Under the pieces are notes generated by a model. That model ran no database searches and had not been told where the DNA came from. It was given only the letters and a program-made list of their open reading frames with translations. From Candidatus Woesearchaeota archaeon (GTDB taxonomy: Archaea > Nanobdellota > Nanobdellia > Woesearchaeales > GW2011-AR4): a DNA stretch of 64,000 nt. Shown one piece after another: positions 8,087 to 56,970 of the stretch. Position 1 is the first letter of the stretch, and the number at the start of each line of letters is the position of its first letter. A program made the translations under genes and the position numbers. Where the stretch lies: assembly GCA_018303655.1 (NCBI GenBank), contig JAGVXT010000021.1:18811-82810 (forward strand), in the 5' to 3' direction.

Positions 8087-10999
8087 TTAATTTAATTTTT
8101 TGTCTTTTTTTTTTGAATATATTATATATCCAAACAATGTTATTGTTATTACGGACAATATAATTAATATAATTTTTACTGCTTTAGATGTCAATTTAAT
8201 AGTTATAAACGATGCTCCAGTAATATCCGTTAGTTCTTTTATTGATTTTTCAGGTATACTTTCCCCCGTCTTTATTAAGTGAGAAGCGGCATTTCCAGAT
8301 TCTAAAACTTGAATTTGTCCAATATTATCTTGACCATAATTAACCCATCTTACAGCATTATTGATAATAGGATCAATCTCTATGGACCTTGTTATGTTGT
8401 AATCTCCATTTGGAATATTAGGTCTTAAATCTACTGTAAAGTTAACTTGGCCACCATTTGGACCTAAGGTTTCAGCAACCAATGGCAAACAATAAGGCGC
8501 TTCTGCCCTATTAGTATCGGTAGCCTTATCTTGATTAAAGCACTTTGTCTTATTTACGTCAGTAATCCAGAAGAACATCCTTAAGGGTAGTAATGCTCCA
8601 ACAGCATAGCCTTCTTTTACTGGAATGTTTATTGTATAGTCTATGCTTATATTTGAAGTAGCACTTAAAGTGTTGGTTGTGATATTTTCAAATAATATAA
8701 CAGAAGTGTCTGTTCCAGTTACTCTCTTCCAAATGTCCTTTGTTGTTTGGTTTATTGTTCTTAATAAGTCAATACATTCTCCTGAGTTGAAGCAGTTATA
8801 GAGGAATTGTAACCAATTGTGTTCTTCTGTTGTAAGACCTTTTCCTATAAGAGACATAGGCACAACTACCATCTTATTACTATCTGCAATGAACGAATCC
8901 GTTTTACCATAATGTAAATCTGCAGTATATTGACATGTATAATCATCAGGAGCAAATGTATTTGTAGCAGGAAATGGATTAGTTTTAGTTTGTCTAGTAC
9001 TAAAACCACCACAAGTAACTGACATTCTCTGACTACCTGAAAATGTCAGTGTTTTATTTGTAACACTATCTGTTAAATTAAACGTAATAGTCCAATTAGC
9101 ATAAGCAAACTGGAAAGTTTTCGAAAAGCTGCTGTTTCCAAAACCGTCATTCGCTCTTACTCTCCAGAAATAGGTATCTTCATCGTTTGAAGGCAAAGTA
9201 ACATTAACGCCAGTAACTCTATCTGAGTCTTGTGGCACAGAACTGTTGAAGTAGACTCTGTTTCCATTAAAATCACTTTGATTATTAACCTCTATTGTGT
9301 ATGTGATTGTATCAATTCCATCATCATCAACTGAATTGTTCCAATTAAATTCCGGCAAATTAGAAGGTTGATTGCCGAAGCCTGAATTGTTTGCTGGTGT
9401 CTGCAATGTAGGGGCTGTAGGCTTTGTGTTGTTGATAGTAACTATTCTTGCGCTGGATCCTGTATTACTGGAGTTATCAGTGCAGGTAACATTCCATTGC
9501 CATACATTTCTGCTTATATTTACCAGTATCCAGTTAGTTAGGGTTCCATTTTTAACACTTGAATTAGTCTGTTTTAAGGTATTATTAAAGTAAAGTCTGC
9601 AACTCATATTCAGCAATCCAAAGTCGTCAGTTGCTGTAAAGTTAAATCTAAAAGGCCTGTCTTTGAAAAATAAAATAGCATTGTTATCTGGCTTTTCCAA
9701 AGTAACTGTTGGTTGTGCCACATCAGTTAAATTTATTGTAAGATTTCCGCTTGTAGAACTTCTGTTTTGATTTCCAGCTTCATCTTTACATCCTATTGAA
9801 ATATTATATAAACCAGGAGAAGTAAATTCTTTTGTGTCTGGCAAAGTGCAAGTTAAAATATTTCCAGGTGCATTTGTGCAATTTGTTAAAGGATCATTGG
9901 CAATCATATCTGTATAGTTTAAATTTAGAGTGCTTATAGCGCAAAAAGAAGGTTCGCTTAAATTTATTTTTACTGTAGGGGTTTTATCAGAAGTTTTACA
10001 AGAATTTTGCTTGTTTGTGTTCCAGTTTGTGCAGCCTAAGCCTCCTTCAGAAGTTATATTATAAAACTTTATTTCTGGCGGTGTTGTGTCTGCTGCTGAT
10101 ATTTCTACAACTGCTATAATTGTTCCATTTCCTCCATAATCATTTCTATCAGAATTTCCATAACCAATGCCTATTCGATTAGTATTATTCATAGTTATAA
10201 AATCAGCATCACCTGTTTTGGGGGGAGTTTGACTGTTTACTGCTGTTGTAGCAAGTGTTTCACTTCCAATATTACAACCTCCAATATAACCACTGCCTCC
10301 TCCTCCAGCTCCGCCATCTCCTCCTGAAGGGTCAATACCTCCGCCTCCTCCGAAGTATCCATCTCCTCCGCCTCCTCCAACTGCCGCTCCACCTTGATGA
10401 TAACCTGTTCCTCCATTCGGAAATCCTCCAAAAGCTCTATTATCTGTAGCAACAGCTGAACTATTGCCTCCGAATAAAGAACCTCCTGCAAAACTTCCAG
10501 CACCGCCAGCAGTCTGGGTTCCACCTGAACCAGGAGTATCACCAATACCACCAGAACCACTTAATCCTTTTGTACCTCCTCCTGCACCCCCTTGTGCTCC
10601 TCCTGAACCTCCTCCACCTCCTGCAATTGCTAAAAGTTCATCATCACTTTGCCTTGCTATTTGACTTCTACCTCCTCCACCTCCTGCAAGAGGCCTGTCA
10701 ATATTTCCTGTTCCATTGCCACCTTGGCCTACAGTAAGGACTATAGTTTCACCTACTGTAAAATTAATAGTACAATTTGTAAAGCCACCAGCACCTCCAT
10801 GATTAAGCCCAGGACCTGCACCATCTCCTCCAGCTCCGCCACCTCCCCACATTAAGAAATAAACATTTGAGGTGGTGACTGGAATGACAAAAGTTTGATT
10901 AAAACCTGTAGAATTAAAGAAATACTTGGTTGTCGTAGCACTGACAAAAGGTATAACTAATAAAAACATTGCAAAAAACCAAATAAACTTCTTAAACAT
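8087..10999 (-). CDS. large secreted surface protein (970 aa) with signal peptide, glycine-rich (GGxGG) domain, sequon-rich Thr/Asn domains and C-terminal TM anchor
   Basis: N-terminus MFKKFIWFFAMFLLVIPFVSATT. About 240 aa of GGGGAGG/GGAGG repeats. Many NxT/S sequons. C-terminal KAVKIILIILSVITITLFGYIIYSKKKDKKLN is a TM helix plus basic tail. Confidence 0.6.
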   Translation of the reverse strand: MFKKFIWFFAMFLLVIPFVSATTTKYFFNSTGFNQTFVIPVTTSNVYFLMWGGGGAGGDGAGPGLNHGGAGGFTNCTINFTVGETIVLTVGQGGNGTGNIDRPLAGGGGGRSQIARQSDDELLAIAGGGGGSGGAQGGAGGGTKGLSGSGGIGDTPGSGGTQTAGGAGSFAGGSLFGGNSSAVATDNRAFGGFPNGGTGYHQGGAAVGGGGGDGYFGGGGGIDPSGGDGGAGGGGSGYIGGCNIGSETLATTAVNSQTPPKTGDADFITMNNTNRIGIGYGNSDRNDYGGNGTIIAVVEISAADTTPPEIKFYNITSEGGLGCTNWNTNKQNSCKTSDKTPTVKINLSEPSFCAISTLNLNYTDMIANDPLTNCTNAPGNILTCTLPDTKEFTSPGLYNISIGCKDEAGNQNRSSTSGNLTINLTDVAQPTVTLEKPDNNAILFFKDRPFRFNFTATDDFGLLNMSCRLYFNNTLKQTNSSVKNGTLTNWILVNISRNVWQWNVTCTDNSSNTGSSARIVTINNTKPTAPTLQTPANNSGFGNQPSNLPEFNWNNSVDDDGIDTITYTIEVNNQSDFNGNRVYFNSSVPQDSDRVTGVNVTLPSNDEDTYFWRVRANDGFGNSSFSKTFQFAYANWTITFNLTDSVTNKTLTFSGSQRMSVTCGGFSTRQTKTNPFPATNTFAPDDYTCQYTADLHYGKTDSFIADSNKMVVVPMSLIGKGLTTEEHNWLQFLYNCFNSGECIDLLRTINQTTKDIWKRVTGTDTSVILFENITTNTLSATSNISIDYTINIPVKEGYAVGALLPLRMFFWITDVNKTKCFNQDKATDTNRAEAPYCLPLVAETLGPNGGQVNFTVDLRPNIPNGDYNITRSIEIDPIINNAVRWVNYGQDNIGQIQVLESGNAASHLIKTGESIPEKSIKELTDITGASFITIKLTSKAVKIILIILSVITITLFGYIIYSKKKDKKLN

Positions 11000-28192: not shown

Positions 28193-28906
28193 TTAGGATT
28201 TTGTATAAAGGATGCCCTTTTTTTCTATTATGAATTGTAAATACTCAAAATCTTCCGGCTGGTCAACTTCCGCAGAGAAGGGGGTTATAAAGGCCAATAT
28301 TTTTGGCCCATGAAGGTTGTTGTGCTTCATTATAAAGTCTGGTACGAGCACATCAACATAGCCATTAGGATGGTAAGCTGGCGGAAAGCTTTGTCTTGGC
28401 AGGTTATAATATTCCGGCCTGGTGTCATCAGGAAACATGCCCACTAGAAATCCATTATTGATTTCGAATGCCTTGCGCGGAGATTCAGCCATTTCATGAA
28501 CTGATCGCAAAGATGATGCCTTATCATTGTTTTTTAAGGCCTTGATCGCCTTGTCAATTAATGATGGCTCCCTTAAAGGTGTTGTAGGCCTGAGGTGCAC
28601 CAGCAACTCCGGCAGACTGCCTTCCTTTTTTTTATGCCATTCTAAAAAATGGGATATAAATTCTATATCTGTAGACGTATCAATAGCCAACTCTCTGGGC
28701 CTCAAAAATGGGACCTCTGCCCCGTATATTTTGGCTATGTCTGCAATTTCCTGGGAATCCGTTGAGACTATTACCCTGTCAATATTTTTTGATCGCTTCG
28801 CTGCAATAATCGAATAAGCTATTAATGGGTAGCCTCCAAGAGGTTTGATATTCTTCTTTGGAATCTTTTTTGACCCGAACCTAGCAGGGATTATTGCAGT
28901 TATCAT
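28193..28906 (-). CDS. neuA: acylneuraminate (nonulosonate/ulosonate) cytidylyltransferase
   Basis: MITAIIPARFGSKKIPKKNIKPLGGYPLIAYSI is the CMP-NeuAc/CMP-Kdo synthetase N-terminal signature. Confidence 0.8.
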   Translation of the reverse strand: MITAIIPARFGSKKIPKKNIKPLGGYPLIAYSIIAAKRSKNIDRVIVSTDSQEIADIAKIYGAEVPFLRPRELAIDTSTDIEFISHFLEWHKKKEGSLPELLVHLRPTTPLREPSLIDKAIKALKNNDKASSLRSVHEMAESPRKAFEINNGFLVGMFPDDTRPEYYNLPRQSFPPAYHPNGYVDVLVPDFIMKHNNLHGPKILAFITPFSAEVDQPEDFEYLQFIIEKKGILYTKS

Positions 28907-28908
28907 TG

Positions 28909-29943
28909 TTAATCTAAATTTTCTACCTTCCTTAATTTTTTAAGGATTGGGATCTCTGACTCGTAAATTCTTTTTTTCCCATCCCCCAGATATAAGGGCA
29001 TCAATCTTGCCACCTCGCAAATGATCTCTATGCCTTTTCTTTCCAGGCTTGCAGACTGGTCGCTTCCGAACATGGATCTGTCCAGAGTTATATGGCGCTC
29101 TACCATGCAAGCTCCCAATGCTATGGCAATCAAAACCGGGTACACCCCTGGCTCATGGCCGCTGTAGCCAACAGGGCAATTGAAGAATTTCCTGAAGGTT
29201 TTTATGACATTTAAGTTATGCTCATTTGGCGGAGTGGGGTATGTTGAAGTGCAGTGCATGATGATTAGATTATTTTCCCCTAAAATATTTACAGCCTTTT
29301 GTATCTGCTCCATTGTGCTCATCCCAGTAGACAATATAATTGGCTTGTTGGTTGATTTTACTTTCATTAAAAGTTTTTTATTAGTCAGCATTGCTGATGC
29401 AATCTTATGGCATGACACATCAAATTTTTCCAGAAAATCAATGCTTTCTTCATCCCAGGCAGATGCAAACCAGATGATATTTTTTTTCCTGCAGTACTCA
29501 TCAATTTCCTTGTATTCATCATAGCCAAATTCTAATGCGCGCTTCAAGTCACCATTGGTTTTGCCAAAAGGGCTTTCTCTGGACATTTCCAGTTCTTCTT
29601 TTGGGTAAACTTTCTCAATAGTCCTCTTTTGAAATTTTACCGCATCACATCCGGATTCAGCTGCAATATCAATCAATTTTTTGCAAATTTCCATGTTTCC
29701 ATTATGGTTTATTCCAATTTCAGCTGTGATAAAAACTGGTTGGTCATGACCCACAAGCTTGCTTCCAATCATAACAGGCTTAGGGTTTCTTTCTTCGAGA
29801 TACATCTTCTCATAAATTTTCCAAGCCTGGGAAATTGCCTGAGTTTTGTTGGGGATAATCCCCTGGCTGTTGTTCACTAATTCAGTAATTTTTCTATTTA
29901 ACTCTTCTGGAATTGTTATTGACTCATATCCTTCTTTTGGCAT
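28909..29943 (-). CDS. neuB: NeuB-family PEP-condensing nonulosonate/ulosonate synthase with N-terminal RHH-like extension and no C-terminal SAF domain
   Basis: ITAEIGINHNGNMEICKKLIDIAAESGCDAVKFQK...ILSTGMS...HCTSTYPTP...VGYSGHE is the NeuB TIM barrel. The about 60 N-terminal residues SITIPEELNRKITELVNNSQGIIPNKTQAISQAWKIY fit a beta-alpha-alpha ribbon-helix-helix pattern. The protein ends right after the barrel. Confidence 0.8.
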   Translation of the reverse strand: MPKEGYESITIPEELNRKITELVNNSQGIIPNKTQAISQAWKIYEKMYLEERNPKPVMIGSKLVGHDQPVFITAEIGINHNGNMEICKKLIDIAAESGCDAVKFQKRTIEKVYPKEELEMSRESPFGKTNGDLKRALEFGYDEYKEIDEYCRKKNIIWFASAWDEESIDFLEKFDVSCHKIASAMLTNKKLLMKVKSTNKPIILSTGMSTMEQIQKAVNILGENNLIIMHCTSTYPTPPNEHNLNVIKTFRKFFNCPVGYSGHEPGVYPVLIAIALGACMVERHITLDRSMFGSDQSASLERKGIEIICEVARLMPLYLGDGKKRIYESEIPILKKLRKVENLD

Positions 29944-30025: not shown

Positions 30026-30119
30026 TTTAAATAACAATTTGATGTTAAAAGGAAGGGGCGGTTTTCTCAAATACTAAACAAAATCGCTTTCAATAAAATT
30101 TATATATTAAAGGGGACTG

Positions 30120-31182
30120 ATGGTTGGCATGCTAAATAAAAGATATGAATTTGATGGAAAACCGACACTTAAATTAAATAAGCTCCAGCTGAAAAATAAA
30201 AAGCTTGTAGAAGATAAAATTAATTCAAAAGAATACACCTTTGAAAAGGTTAATTGCGTTATTTGCAATGGCTCTGATTTTGAATTATTGGCAGAGAAAG
30301 ATAGATATGGTTTATATGTTCCTACAGTAATTTGCAAAAAATGTGGTTTACTTCAAACAAATCCGAGAATGAATCAGGAATCCTACAATAAGTTTTATGA
30401 TTCAAATTATAGGAGATTATACGAGGGAGGGGAAAACGAAGAGAACATTGCATCCTTCTTTAATAAACAAGTATCTCATGGAGAGTCAATCCTAATGCTT
30501 ATAGAGAGAGAGAGCAAATAATAGATTTGAGAATAAGTTTGTTGTTGAAATTGGAGCAGGTGCAGGAGGCATACTGCAGGCTTTTAAGAACAGAAACAAC
30601 AAAGTCTTTGGCTTGGATTTAGGAACAGAGTACATTAAATTTGGAAAACAAAAGGGCATAAACTTAGAGATAGGAACCATTAAGGAACTAAATAAATTAA
30701 AAGAAAAGCCTGACTTAGTAATTTATTCTCATGTTTTAGAACATATATTAAATCCCTATGAAGAACTAAGAAGATTAAGGAAATACCTAAAGAAAGACAG
30801 CCTAGTCTATATTGAAGTCCCAGGCGTTAAAAACTTAGAGCAATCCTACAACCAGGATTTCCTCAAGTATCTCCAAAATGCACATGTGTATCACTTTTCA
30901 TTGAAAACTTTAGGAAATCTGACAAAGAAAGCAGGTTTTGATTTAATTTATGGAAATGAAAGAATTAATTTAATATTAAGAATAGGGAAAGCGAATAACC
31001 ACTTCCATAGCGATTACAAAGAAACAATTAGCTTTTTGATGAATCTCGAAAGAAGAAGAAAAAATCCACTCAACATGCTTAGAATAAAGAGTCAGGTTTT
31101 TGATTTCCTAATATCCCTAAGCAGAAGAACTAGCACTTTTAAAATAGGAAGAAAAATATATCATTCAATTAAACGTAAATAA
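30120..31182 (+). pseudogene. class I SAM methyltransferase with N-terminal Cys4 zinc ribbon, split by a frameshift at an (AG)6 tract
   Basis: Frame 0 (30120-30521) encodes the CxxC...CxxC zinc-ribbon N-terminus and ends ...IERESK*. Frame +1 opens at 30505 and encodes motif I VVEIGAGAGG followed by ...VIYSHVLEHI.... The junction lies in agagagagagag (30503-30514). (AG)7 or (AG)4 would restore one ORF of about 355 aa. Confidence 0.6.
30503..30514 (+). repeat. (AG)6 dinucleotide tract at the frameshift site
   Basis: Seen directly. Confidence 0.9.
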
Positions 31183-31341
31183 GAGAAAACTGCCCAGAAT
31201 TATTGTTCTTGAGGTATCGCATTCGCTCAATAGATAGAACACTCCTGAAAATTACTTGCTCCGTTTCACTCCGCACCACGCTGCGCTCTTGGCTTAGCCT
31301 ATTAATAGGGTCCCGATGAAAAACGTTTTTTATTTTGAATA

Positions 31342-32832
31342 TTAGGTAGCTCTAAGCCTCCTTAATAATTCTTTTACTTCAGAAACAGTCACCAATCCCC
31401 ATATGAATAAAGATATAACATAAATTGCTCCTGAAACTAATAATATAAGCGGTATTTTAACAAATAAATTCATGGTCATTTGTAGATTGAGGTAGTTCAC
31501 TATTAAAAGGAAGACTATAGAAATGGCAAGATTCTTTATCCATCTAATATACGGTATCTGTATAAGATTTTTCTTTTTAAGAATATAAAGTCCTAAAAGC
31601 GCCATTGATAGGTAAGATATTGCAGTTGCTACTGCAGCTCCCGTAAATCCGAATTTTGGTATTAAGAGAAAATTGAAAAATATGTTTAATATTGCACTTA
31701 TTCCTATTATTTTCGTATTAATACCTGGTTCTCCTATACCAGAAAAAATTCCGCCATTTATTCCCTGAAATGTATGGAACATGATGCCTATTGCCAATAT
31801 TTTCAGAGCCATGCTTCCAATCACATAATTGCTGCCATAAAATAATTCCAGAATTATACTGGAAAATATGATTAATAATGATAAAACTGGCAAGATTAAA
31901 ATCAAAGAAAATCTGTATAATAACCCTATTCCCTTTTTTAGCTCCGTTTTCATTCCTTTATTCCATAATTCAGAGGTAATAGGTAAAAGAACATATCCAA
32001 TAGCACTGGTTATATACCATGTAAGCATTGCAGTGGGTAATACCGCACTGTAGATGCCAACTTCTTCCAACCCTCTAAAATAAGTGATCATTAACTGGTC
32101 AGAATATCCTATCACTATTCCTACTGAAGAAATTAAAATTACTTGTATTCCGTACTTTCTCAGCCTCTTGAATAATGGCTTATCCCAAAAAAATTTATTT
32201 TTAGTAAACGCATCAAAATTTTTATATAAAAACGGAAAGTAAACAAAAAGCAGGATTAAAGAGGTAATAATGTATGCTATAACGGGGCTTAATATGCCAT
32301 AATCCATTTTAAAAAATATTAAGGATATGGCAAGTATCAATATCATTCTTATGATATCTACGCTTGAGAATAGTCCCATCTTTTGGAATCCTTGAAATGA
32401 TGATTTTATTAAAAGTACAAAACTATCAACGAACAAACTTATTGCCATTAATATCAGAACTATCGGTCCAAAGTCGTGTTTTAAAAAATTGACGCCTAAA
32501 TATTTTGCAAAAATCAAAATAATAATTAGAAATATAATATTATTTACTAATAAAACGATGCTAGCGTATATTATTGAATTTTTTATATTCTGGAATTCTG
32601 ACTTTGCTGTAAATTTAGGGATAAAAAAAGCCAAAGCGGTATCTAACCCCAAACCTTTAAAAAAACTAAAGAATCCCAAAAACGCTATTGTTGCGTAGAA
32701 AAGCCCGAATTCTTCAACAGTCAAATTTCTTGCAAAAAAAATCCTAACAAAGTATCCAATAAAAGCCGCGACTATAGAAATCACAAAAACTATTACTACA
32801 TTTTTCAAAGCCTTTTTTGTGTAATTAGTCAT
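31342..32832 (-). CDS. Wzx-like oligosaccharide flippase (MOP/polysaccharide biosynthesis protein family)
   Basis: 496 aa with about 12-14 predicted TM helices. Sits in a glycan-locus context. Confidence 0.7.
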   Translation of the reverse strand: MTNYTKKALKNVVIVFVISIVAAFIGYFVRIFFARNLTVEEFGLFYATIAFLGFFSFFKGLGLDTALAFFIPKFTAKSEFQNIKNSIIYASIVLLVNNIIFLIIILIFAKYLGVNFLKHDFGPIVLILMAISLFVDSFVLLIKSSFQGFQKMGLFSSVDIIRMILILAISLIFFKMDYGILSPVIAYIITSLILLFVYFPFLYKNFDAFTKNKFFWDKPLFKRLRKYGIQVILISSVGIVIGYSDQLMITYFRGLEEVGIYSAVLPTAMLTWYITSAIGYVLLPITSELWNKGMKTELKKGIGLLYRFSLILILPVLSLLIIFSSIILELFYGSNYVIGSMALKILAIGIMFHTFQGINGGIFSGIGEPGINTKIIGISAILNIFFNFLLIPKFGFTGAAVATAISYLSMALLGLYILKKKNLIQIPYIRWIKNLAISIVFLLIVNYLNLQMTMNLFVKIPLILLVSGAIYVISLFIWGLVTVSEVKELLRRLRAT

Positions 32833-56822: not shown

Positions 56823-56862
56823 GGTGGACAGCTTTTCCAGTTTCCCACACATAAGTGAAGTA

Positions 56863-56970
56863 CTGCTGGAAACGGAGGCTTGCTTAACTTCCGTGAACCC
56901 GGAAAGTGCTTGGTGCACATCCTTTCGGGATGGGAACGGGTGAACCAAGCCCCTATGACCGTCCAAGCAG
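56863..56970 (+). ncRNA. candidate structured ncRNA within a GC-rich island (56823-56975); class unknown
   Basis: About 52% GC in a roughly 33% GC genome. Closing helix CUGCUGG/CCAAGCAG. Hairpin ACGGAGG-9nt-CUUCCGU. Hairpin CCCGGAA...UUUCGGG enclosing GUGC-UUGGU-GCAC. Hairpin GGA(A)CGG...CCGUCC. Loop-loop complementarity GCUUGGU (56908-14) / ACCAAGC (56944-50). Strand is uncertain. Confidence 0.35.

Follow-up and report, generated by a model that had tools for sequence, protein, structure and literature searches.

Analysis of a 64,000 nucleotide (nt) stretch of the genome of an uncultured Candidatus Woesearchaeota archaeon (GCA_018303655.1, contig JAGVXT010000021.1, positions 18,811 to 82,810; hereafter the window) revealed a putative sugar methyltransferase gene (30120-31182) that was split by a frameshift at a perfect (AG)6 repeat, the length of which varied by whole units in the natural population. 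We gave a probability of about 0.6 to the reading that this is a slipped-strand contingency, or phase-variable, locus for one glycan decoration, which is currently OFF in the sampled aquifer population. Seen directly were the tract, its frame logic, the whole-unit polymorphism and a gene that is otherwise intact, as well as the different repeats that distant homologs carry at this junction.

The (AG)6 tract, AGAGAGAGAGAG (30503-30514, + strand), was the site of the frameshift. The N-terminal ORF (open reading frame; 30120-30521, + strand) encoded a four-cysteine zinc ribbon (CxxC...CxxC) and the first helices, and this OFF product was 133 amino acids (aa) long, or 130 aa if translated from the ATG at 30129, where homologs begin (MLNKRY). 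Frame 0, whether read from ATG 30120 or ATG 30129, stopped at TAA 30519-30521, five bases beyond the tract, giving a C-terminus of ...GESILMLIERESK*. In frame +1 the last stop codon was TAG at 30502-30504, and the frame was then open (30505-31182, + strand) to the stop codon at 31180-31182. This region encoded the end of the junction, RERANNRFENKFVVEIGAGAGG..., followed by motif I (VVEIGAGAGG, 30541-30570) and the rest of a class I S-adenosylmethionine (SAM)-dependent methyltransferase, comprising a Rossmann-type SAM domain and C-terminal helices. Both frames were open only across 30505-30518, which is made up of the tract and CAAA (10 of its 14 bases belong to the tract), and the shift therefore lies within this interval. 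The original prediction, made from the letters of the window alone, had placed a frameshift at the (AG)6 repeat, and this was borne out. Its arithmetic, according to which a gain of one AG unit or a loss of two would restore a single ORF of about 355 aa, was also right: (AG)7 gave 354 aa and (AG)4 gave 352 aa, with a further full-length ORF of 356 aa at (AG)10.

The repaired protein scored 62.5 bits against Pfam Methyltransf_23 (cut-off 27) and, with its glycine-rich motif I, belonged to the class I SAM-dependent methyltransferases. It aligned end to end with single-ORF homologs of approximately 350 aa, the best of which was 71% identical. The tract was the longest dinucleotide repeat in the window, in which only three had at least 4 units, and the chance expectation for such a tract was 0.01 per window (dinucleotide-preserving shuffles). 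It thus had the features of the repeats of contingency loci, being perfect, inside an ORF, of a unit length not divisible by three and longer than the base composition predicts. In NCBI the 133-aa fragment is annotated as a hypothetical protein of Candidatus Woesearchaeota archaeon (MBS3105441.1), and a 210-aa downstream model begins MGAGAGG, at which position there is no ATG, GTG or TTG. A functional split gene was considered and rejected, as the downstream frame had no start codon before motif I, the first being TTG at 30613.

The original prediction had also named (AG)n length heterogeneity in the population as the thing to look for, and public assemblies showed it to be present. Alleles were located via exact protein look-ups and the contigs encoding those proteins. 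The same locus was present in many independent consensus assemblies, with 99.3-100% identity over the stretches compared; these were JGI 3300002105 and 3300002529, Logan SRR3989342, ENA MEGAHIT (k141) assemblies ERZ272547xx/548xx and ERZ49031xx, and ANAN16 scaffolds of BioSamples SAMN0384243x. The tract was (AG)6 followed by CAAA in 14 of 16 assemblies and (AG)8 in the other 2. The exact 133-aa N-terminal protein was present on 13 contigs from several samples, and the 90% cluster containing it had five members, none of which was in frame. Two of these members (165 and 168 aa) ended ...LMLIEREREQIIDLRISLLLKLEQ..., which is the third reading frame, and their contigs carried (AG)8. These contigs, L007 (ENA ERZ27254836, 5.4 kb) and L008 (JGI 3300025311, 2.3 kb), came from two pipelines; (AG)8 was recorded in L007/L013/L084 and in L008.

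Alignment of L008 with the window showed an additional AGAG as the only difference, with 0 single-nucleotide polymorphisms (SNPs) over 2284 nt. L007 had the additional AGAG and a cluster of changes inside neuB, and its methyltransferase gene was otherwise unchanged. As the (AG)8 background was identical in all other respects, the length of the tract is polymorphic by whole units, and a whole-unit length change that outpaces point substitution is the look of a slippage-prone repeat. The two observed lengths, 6 and 8, are both out of frame and flank the in-frame 7, which is where steps of one unit from an ON state would place them. The majority state was OFF in every sample recovered.

A sequencing or assembly artefact that conceals an in-frame tract had been named among the alternatives, as short repeats are classic sites of indel errors and the window comes from a metagenome-assembled genome (MAG). 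The same (AG)6 was found in 14 assemblies produced by several assemblers and pipelines (JGI, ENA MEGAHIT k141, ANAN16 scaffolds and Logan) and (AG)8 was recovered twice, by two pipelines, which excludes such an error. Additionally, the k-mers and reads used are much longer than a repeat of 12-16 nt, and an artefact was the least credible of all the explanations that we considered.

Mostly synonymous changes were densely clustered within approximately 110 nt of neuB (29593-29707, codons 79-117), with 17 changes in L007/L013 and 14 in L014, and L014 had a second cluster in the flippase gene (32464-32646). Elsewhere the three contigs were identical to the window, save for the additional AGAG of L007/L013 and the second cluster of L014. 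The pattern points to a related neuB as the source, through either recombination or chimeric assembly. The neuB clusters were tried as markers of an (AG)8 haplotype and rejected: they were also found, with partly different bases, on L014, which is an (AG)6 contig, and are therefore uninformative on linkage. Another contig, L018, begins six bases before the tract, which is compatible with a branch in the assembly graph at this point and proves nothing.

In the proposed mechanism, the enzyme would consist of three modules, a zinc ribbon, a Rossmann SAM domain and a C-terminal helical module, and the (AG)n tract would lie where the helix preceding strand β1 of the SAM domain ends. Strand slippage during replication would add or remove AG units. 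At (AG)4, (AG)7 and (AG)10 the full enzyme would be made, and at other lengths translation would end within 5 to 100 nt, leaving only the zinc-ribbon fragment. As the full enzyme would be produced at some tract lengths only, the locus would behave as a contingency switch for one surface-glycan decoration. We infer, further, that (AG)7 would arise at a useful frequency, that the (AG)7 protein would be active and that switching would be reversible and selected.

The rest of the gene was intact. The repaired product matched the consensus at 87 of the 87 columns that were at least 85% conserved in 112 near-full-length homologs, which themselves deviated at a mean of 4.2. This consensus favours the query, having been built from homologs selected for their similarity to it. 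In the majority genotype the frameshift at the tract was the single lesion. The suggestion of a long-fixed, multiply disabled pseudogene is thus a poor fit with this genotype, which has kept all 87 conserved positions. The main rival is a more recent inactivation. Here the gene would have been killed once, by slippage or by a single-base insertion, and the tract would then have drifted neutrally from (AG)6 to (AG)8, with no adaptive or reversible role. The single lesion and the 87 conserved positions of the majority sequence argue against this, as does the route, since drift from (AG)6 to (AG)8 by the usual single-unit steps passes through the in-frame (AG)7. We regarded a recently inactivated pseudogene as possible but less likely than a switch.

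Several observations weigh against a switch, and a recently dead gene would account for the missing ON allele and for the secondary lesions described below. No in-frame allele was found by any route: 16 of 16 assemblies were out of frame, the only lengths recorded were the OFF lengths 6 and 8, and no ON allele was present in the databases searched. A full-length homology search (742 matches) returned a best match of 71% identity and no closer full-length relative. This search missed an identical 189-aa fragment, and a short query to the same tool returned none but short proteins, from which the tool was inferred to list proteins of similar length; the absence of a full-length, near-identical match was therefore taken as informative. 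Exact look-ups of the (AG)4, (AG)7 and (AG)10 products, from both starts, and of two single-base repairs found none of them among 15 billion proteins. The contigs reached via neuB (17) and via the flippase gene (18) had split arrangements only. All of the data are consensus assemblies, apparently of one aquifer, and a single physical sample might be the source of both (AG)8 contigs. The 64-kb window has no other repeat of this kind. A pattern scan of metagenome contigs, in which the tract flanks were separated by a variable gap, gave no match even to (AG)6, and this collection evidently lacks the samples concerned.

Extra disabling lesions were also present in two minor variants, as relaxed selection would give. 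Contig L009 lacked TTCT at 30456-30459, and in L004 a codon was changed from AAA to TAA at 30637. In L009 (ANAN16 scaffold_71691) the flippase gene was also interrupted by approximately 100 nt of unrelated repetitive DNA rich in GT, together with a run of N (L009:1892-1993, at approximately 31848 of the window). This insertion is probably a scaffolding artefact, and it lowers confidence in the 4-nt deletion of the same scaffold. The phase switch of the original prediction therefore stands in part: the length polymorphism, the intact gene and the repeats of homologs favour it, and the OFF state of both natural alleles, the lack of an in-frame allele and the second lesions of the two minor contigs do not.

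The length of the junction also counts against a switch and for a dead gene. The spacing between the IE and NKF motifs was 8 residues (24 nt) in 18 of the 19 closest homologs and 7 residues (21 nt) in P0009, compared to 25 nt in the window. The (AG)7 product has 9 residues here and the (AG)4 product 7, such that relative to the (AG)7 product the junction is one residue shorter in the 18 homologs and two residues shorter in P0009. At the site of the tract the nearest homolog reads ATA GAG AAA AAA ACT AAT AAA, without an AG tract. From the comparison of 25 nt with 24 nt, a single-base insertion into a chance AG-rich stretch would explain the frameshift as economically as the loss of one unit from (AG)7, and deletion of G30514 gives IERETNN..., which is near the IEKKTNK... 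of P0001. Such an insertion was at first favoured as the whole lesion. It was set aside in this role, as it leaves (AG)8 unexplained and as the length of the junction varies between 20 and 23 aa in the family; as the origin of the tract it is possible.

The variation of the junction was further demonstrated by the segment between G121 and E144 in 118 homologs, which was 21 aa long in 94, 22 in 13, 23 in 7, 20 in 3 and 16 in 1. This segment was 22 aa long in the (AG)7 product, and 117 of the 118 homologs had 20-23 aa. The (AG)7 and (AG)4 products are therefore inside the natural range. To judge from the alignments, the junction tolerates changes in length, and some attainable tract length would yield a complete and plausibly functional ORF.

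Correction of the frameshift during expression, either by a +1 ribosomal shift at AAA_TAA (30516-30521) or by slippage of RNA polymerase on the tract, was also considered. An AAA codon followed by a stop codon, with AAT in the +1 frame, is similar to +1 shift sites described elsewhere, and the shifted product, ...IERESK-NRFENKF, has the 8-residue spacing of 18 of the 19 closest homologs. In the (AG)8 allele the upstream codons are in the third frame, where AAA_TAA is not read and another shift would be required. The site was conserved in no homolog; the homologs are single ORFs without AAA_TAA, and those that are shifted are shifted at repeats of their own, with no slippery motif in common. 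Slippage of the polymerase is disfavoured because it is established for long runs of A or T and not for (AG)6. A programmed +1 frameshift was set aside because (AG)8 is in another frame and because neither the shift site nor the frame relation was conserved across alleles and homologs, and we considered a correction of either kind highly improbable.

Comparison with relatives added independent support for a phase switch, as other repeats were found at the same junction in methanogen and Bacteroidales homologs. A scan of species-representative genomes gave 60 loci with relatives, which were searched by tblastn with the repaired protein. Two frameshifted genes were found among the 60 loci, both shifted between query residues ~124 and ~142. 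The first, in a Bacteroidales MAG (L064, DAOOPK010000023.1), had (ATAC)9 at the junction (L064:3355-3390) and was OFF; 8 or 11 ATAC units would give an ORF of 338 or 342 aa. The exact 130-aa protein predicted for (ATAC)7 was present on another contig of 35 kb (a protein match), so the ATAC tract is also polymorphic, with alleles that flank the in-frame 8. The second, in a Dehalococcoidales MAG (L069), was frameshifted at the junction without any repeat and is an ordinary pseudogene or an error. It speaks against a switch and for a dead gene, as a member of a dispensable family that decays elsewhere.

A search with the N-terminal module alone revealed truncated relatives, including one in Methanohalophilus sp. 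WG1-DM (L090, GCA_004104135.1, RRBA01000017.1), on which strain no paper was found in the literature searched. The only frameshift of this gene was at a C8 tract (L090:4386-4393), which was the sole run of at least 6 G or C in 8.4 kb of DNA with 36% GC. C9 or C6 would give a product of 346 or 345 aa, and the OFF product was present on 6 contigs (NCBI, Logan and JGI). An 82% ortholog, P0053, had MEKAPHNL where the C9 product would have MGTPPHNL, a segment of equal length without the tract. A 90% relative, P0144, had MGTPPHNL... in frame with the SAM domain, which is the product expected from C9, and appears to read C9.

A gene that was killed once and then drifted leaves these observations unexplained: three distant lineages have unrelated repeat types, three in all, at one junction, and length polymorphism is seen in two of these as well. 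Perfect repeats that are not under selection would be expected to erode, yet the C tract is apparently kept in 90%-identical Methanohalophilus relatives. In three short metagenome contigs (L094-L096, protein P0130), the match to the family continued through an in-frame TGA (...VYV*ENMKRGIANARIVEIG), with further frame changes downstream. The TGA could have arisen by nonsense mutation as the gene decays, or the organism could be one that reads TGA as sense.

The family had a second cluster of repeats at residues ~286-292 (~282-292 with L050), in the loop before the conserved C-terminal helices. (AATCAAC)6 at L167:2354-2395 was OFF and removed these helices; 5 or 8 units would restore the tail. 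The repeats (ACAAG)4 (L152:1366-1385), G8 (L123 and L149:2358-2365) and C8 (L175:1779-1786) were in frame, and (AAATC)3 (L050:3835-3849), at residue ~282, came from the scan of species-representative genomes. The metagenome loci were the best-scoring 80 of 189 confirmed loci, and among these best 80 no frameshifted genes were found, in a list that favours the best-scoring matches. Long repeats numbered 7 in 149 kb of family genes and 1 in 488 kb of flanking DNA, those of the genes all lying in two short intervals, by criteria (G/C runs of at least 8; at least 4 copies of longer units) that were set after seeing the data. Repeats at this second loop, some ON and some OFF, are also left unexplained by a single inactivation at the AG tract. 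A wider reading is that zinc-ribbon nucleotide-sugar methyltransferases form a family which spans both domains, is mostly found with nonulosonic-acid glycan clusters and has repeatedly and independently gained mono-, di-, tetra-, penta- and heptanucleotide repeats at two permissive loops as ON/OFF switches; for this wider reading we judged the case to be evenly balanced. Additionally, three metagenome loci (L160:292-312, L165:297-317 and L168:313-333) shared a heptanucleotide repeat, (AGTTAAA)3, approximately 1.2 kb upstream of their methyltransferase homologs.

The positions of the two hot spots were examined on a structure model of the 71%-identical homolog P0001 (mean predicted local distance difference test score of 92). 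The first hot spot was at the end of helix 106-127 and in the loop 128-134, before strand β1 (FVVEI, 135-139), and the second was in the loop 284-293 that connects the last strand to the C-terminal helices. Both join structural modules in the model, and on general grounds insertions would be expected to be tolerated at such places. The zinc-ribbon cysteines C46, C49, C72 and C75 were invariant in an alignment of the 19 closest homologs. A Foldseek comparison of the model with the nucleotide-sugar C3-methyltransferases MtmC, KijD1 and TcaB9 gave template modelling (TM) scores of 0.51-0.55 over ~330 columns (E 1e-17 to 1e-13). The sequence profile of the family matched these three enzymes in the SAM domain only (E 6.7e-9), and the NCBIfam profiles gave no specific match for the enzyme. 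The architecture predicted for the enzyme resembles that of TcaB9, MtmC and KijD1, in which a class I SAM domain follows an N-terminal zinc-binding module and precedes a C-terminal one. Sequence identity to the three is only 13-18%, at a root-mean-square deviation of 8-9 Å, and they act on deoxythymidine diphosphate (dTDP)-sugars in antibiotic pathways.

The gene was located in a surface-glycan cluster. Its divergent neighbours on the - strand encode a NeuB-family nonulosonic acid synthase (28909-29943) and a CTP_transf_3 cytidine monophosphate (CMP)-sugar synthetase (28193-28906), and the convergent neighbour (31342-32832, - strand) encodes a Wzx/MurJ-type polysaccharide flippase. Besides NeuB, the synthetase and the Wzx-type flippase, the cluster encodes an aminotransferase, a carbamoyltransferase, a radical SAM enzyme, glycosyltransferases, two further methyltransferases and a DegT aminotransferase. 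NeuB and CMP-sugar synthetase genes also flank the homolog in Methanohalophilus (L090, in which the gene comes directly after both) and are near the homolog in L080. From this context and the modelled fold, the gene most likely encodes a methyltransferase for a nucleotide-activated sugar of a glycan that contains nonulosonic acid, and the surrounding genes suggest that this substrate is a CMP- or nucleoside diphosphate (NDP)-sugar. The label of glycan O-methylation that the gene had been given was not established, as the fold points to a nucleotide-sugar methyltransferase. By cluster and fold the gene belongs to a class typical of contingency loci, that of genes for the modification of surface structures.

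The closest functional parallel would be the poly-G glycan-modification genes of Campylobacter jejuni, in which poly-G/C tracts occur in the flagellar glycosylation, capsule and lipooligosaccharide loci, such as cj1325 (flagellar) and cj1420 and cj1426 (capsule) (PMC8355987; PMC8437040). In both cases an accessory enzyme that decorates surface glycans has a hypermutable repeat within its coding sequence, with ON/OFF frameshifts through slippage and several lengths side by side in populations (PMC8355987; PMC8437040). Glycans of legionaminic and pseudaminic acid are among the targets in C. jejuni, and the gene in the window adjoins genes for NeuB and a CMP-sugar synthetase. The C. jejuni tracts, in contrast, are homopolymeric G/C runs at dozens of loci of a host-associated bacterium, with demonstrated switching and phenotypes, whereas the tract described here is a dinucleotide repeat of a free-living or episymbiotic DPANN archaeon and the only such tract in 64 kb. 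The likeness drawn here is one of mechanism and gene setting.

At the sequence level, the closest parallel appears to be the type III mod gene of Mycoplasma mycoides subsp. capri (M.MmyCI), which is OFF at (AG)12 and ON at (AG)10 (PMC3498834). There too an AG repeat lies inside a methyltransferase gene, the OFF frame stops at a TAA just past the repeat and the observed alleles are two units apart (PMC3498834). M.MmyCI is a restriction-modification DNA methyltransferase of which an ON clone was isolated and found to be active (PMC3498834), whereas the gene in the window encodes a putative sugar-pathway methyltransferase with a tract of 6-8 units, both observed alleles of which are OFF. The CT/AG repeats in outer-membrane protein genes of Helicobacter pylori, such as sabA, are also coding dinucleotide repeats that switch frame by slipped-strand mispairing (PMC2715451). 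Those repeats are near the 5′-end of adhesin genes, unlike the AG tract, which falls between two domains of an enzyme, at codon ~128 of ~354. The dinucleotide tracts of H. pylori typically have approximately 6-11 units. The mechanism proposed for the window, by analogy, matches that of bacterial contingency loci.

Repeat-driven phase variation has been worked out almost wholly in host-associated bacteria. The original prediction had called it rarely documented in archaea, and no worked archaeal example was found in the literature searched. For archaea there are genome-wide statistics on homopolymers and repeats only (PMC2831843; PMC3315296), and a 2025 review names the distribution of contingency loci across archaea as future work (PMC11868660). 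A preprint states that contingency loci have been described in archaea, but two of its three citations are reviews, one on bacteria and the other on repetitive elements in human disease.

Here, the population of an uncultured DPANN archaeon showed whole-unit length variation at a coding repeat of a surface-glycan gene. If the wider reading of the family is true, the aquifer Woesearchaeote and the methanogen Methanohalophilus would have the first concrete repeat-driven phase-variable loci in Archaea, and contingency loci would operate in free-living environmental microbes and not in pathogens alone. The use of two loops of one enzyme family by unrelated repeat types would be a clean case of convergent evolution of mutability. 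As DPANN archaea are attached to hosts and exposed to viruses, stochastic variation in the methylation of a surface sugar would be plausible bet-hedging. Diversity-generating retroelements have already been described in DPANN lineages, and the AG switch would be a second such device beside them. The C8 locus of Methanohalophilus, with its apparent C9 counterpart in a relative, may, if the strain is in culture, offer an archaeal system for measuring both the switching and the glycan phenotype.

Upstream of the methyltransferase gene, an A/T-rich element (30098-30119, + strand) contained TTTATATA at 30100-30107, approximately 26 nt before ATG 30129, followed by GGGG, and is a possible archaeal TATA box or ribosome-binding region. 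Many independent contigs ended between 31228 and 31333, in the intergenic region between the stop codons of the methyltransferase (31182) and flippase (31342) genes. L002, L004, L005 and L016 ended at 31228-31277 from the left, and L085-L087 ended 9-84 nt beyond the flippase gene from the right. The intergenic region (31183-31341, 41.5% GC) had no Rfam match and no second copy in the window; the contig ends may reflect strain-level structural variation or a repeat elsewhere in the genome. ARAGORN found no tRNA genes in the 64-kb window, and a 5S rRNA gene was present at 56823-56966 on the - strand (Rfam RF00001, 55.7 bits). At 10300-10623 there were several imperfect tandem repeats that overlap one another, have periods of 9, 21 and 27 nt and contain much CCTCC and CCACC; they presumably encode a low-complexity stretch on one strand.

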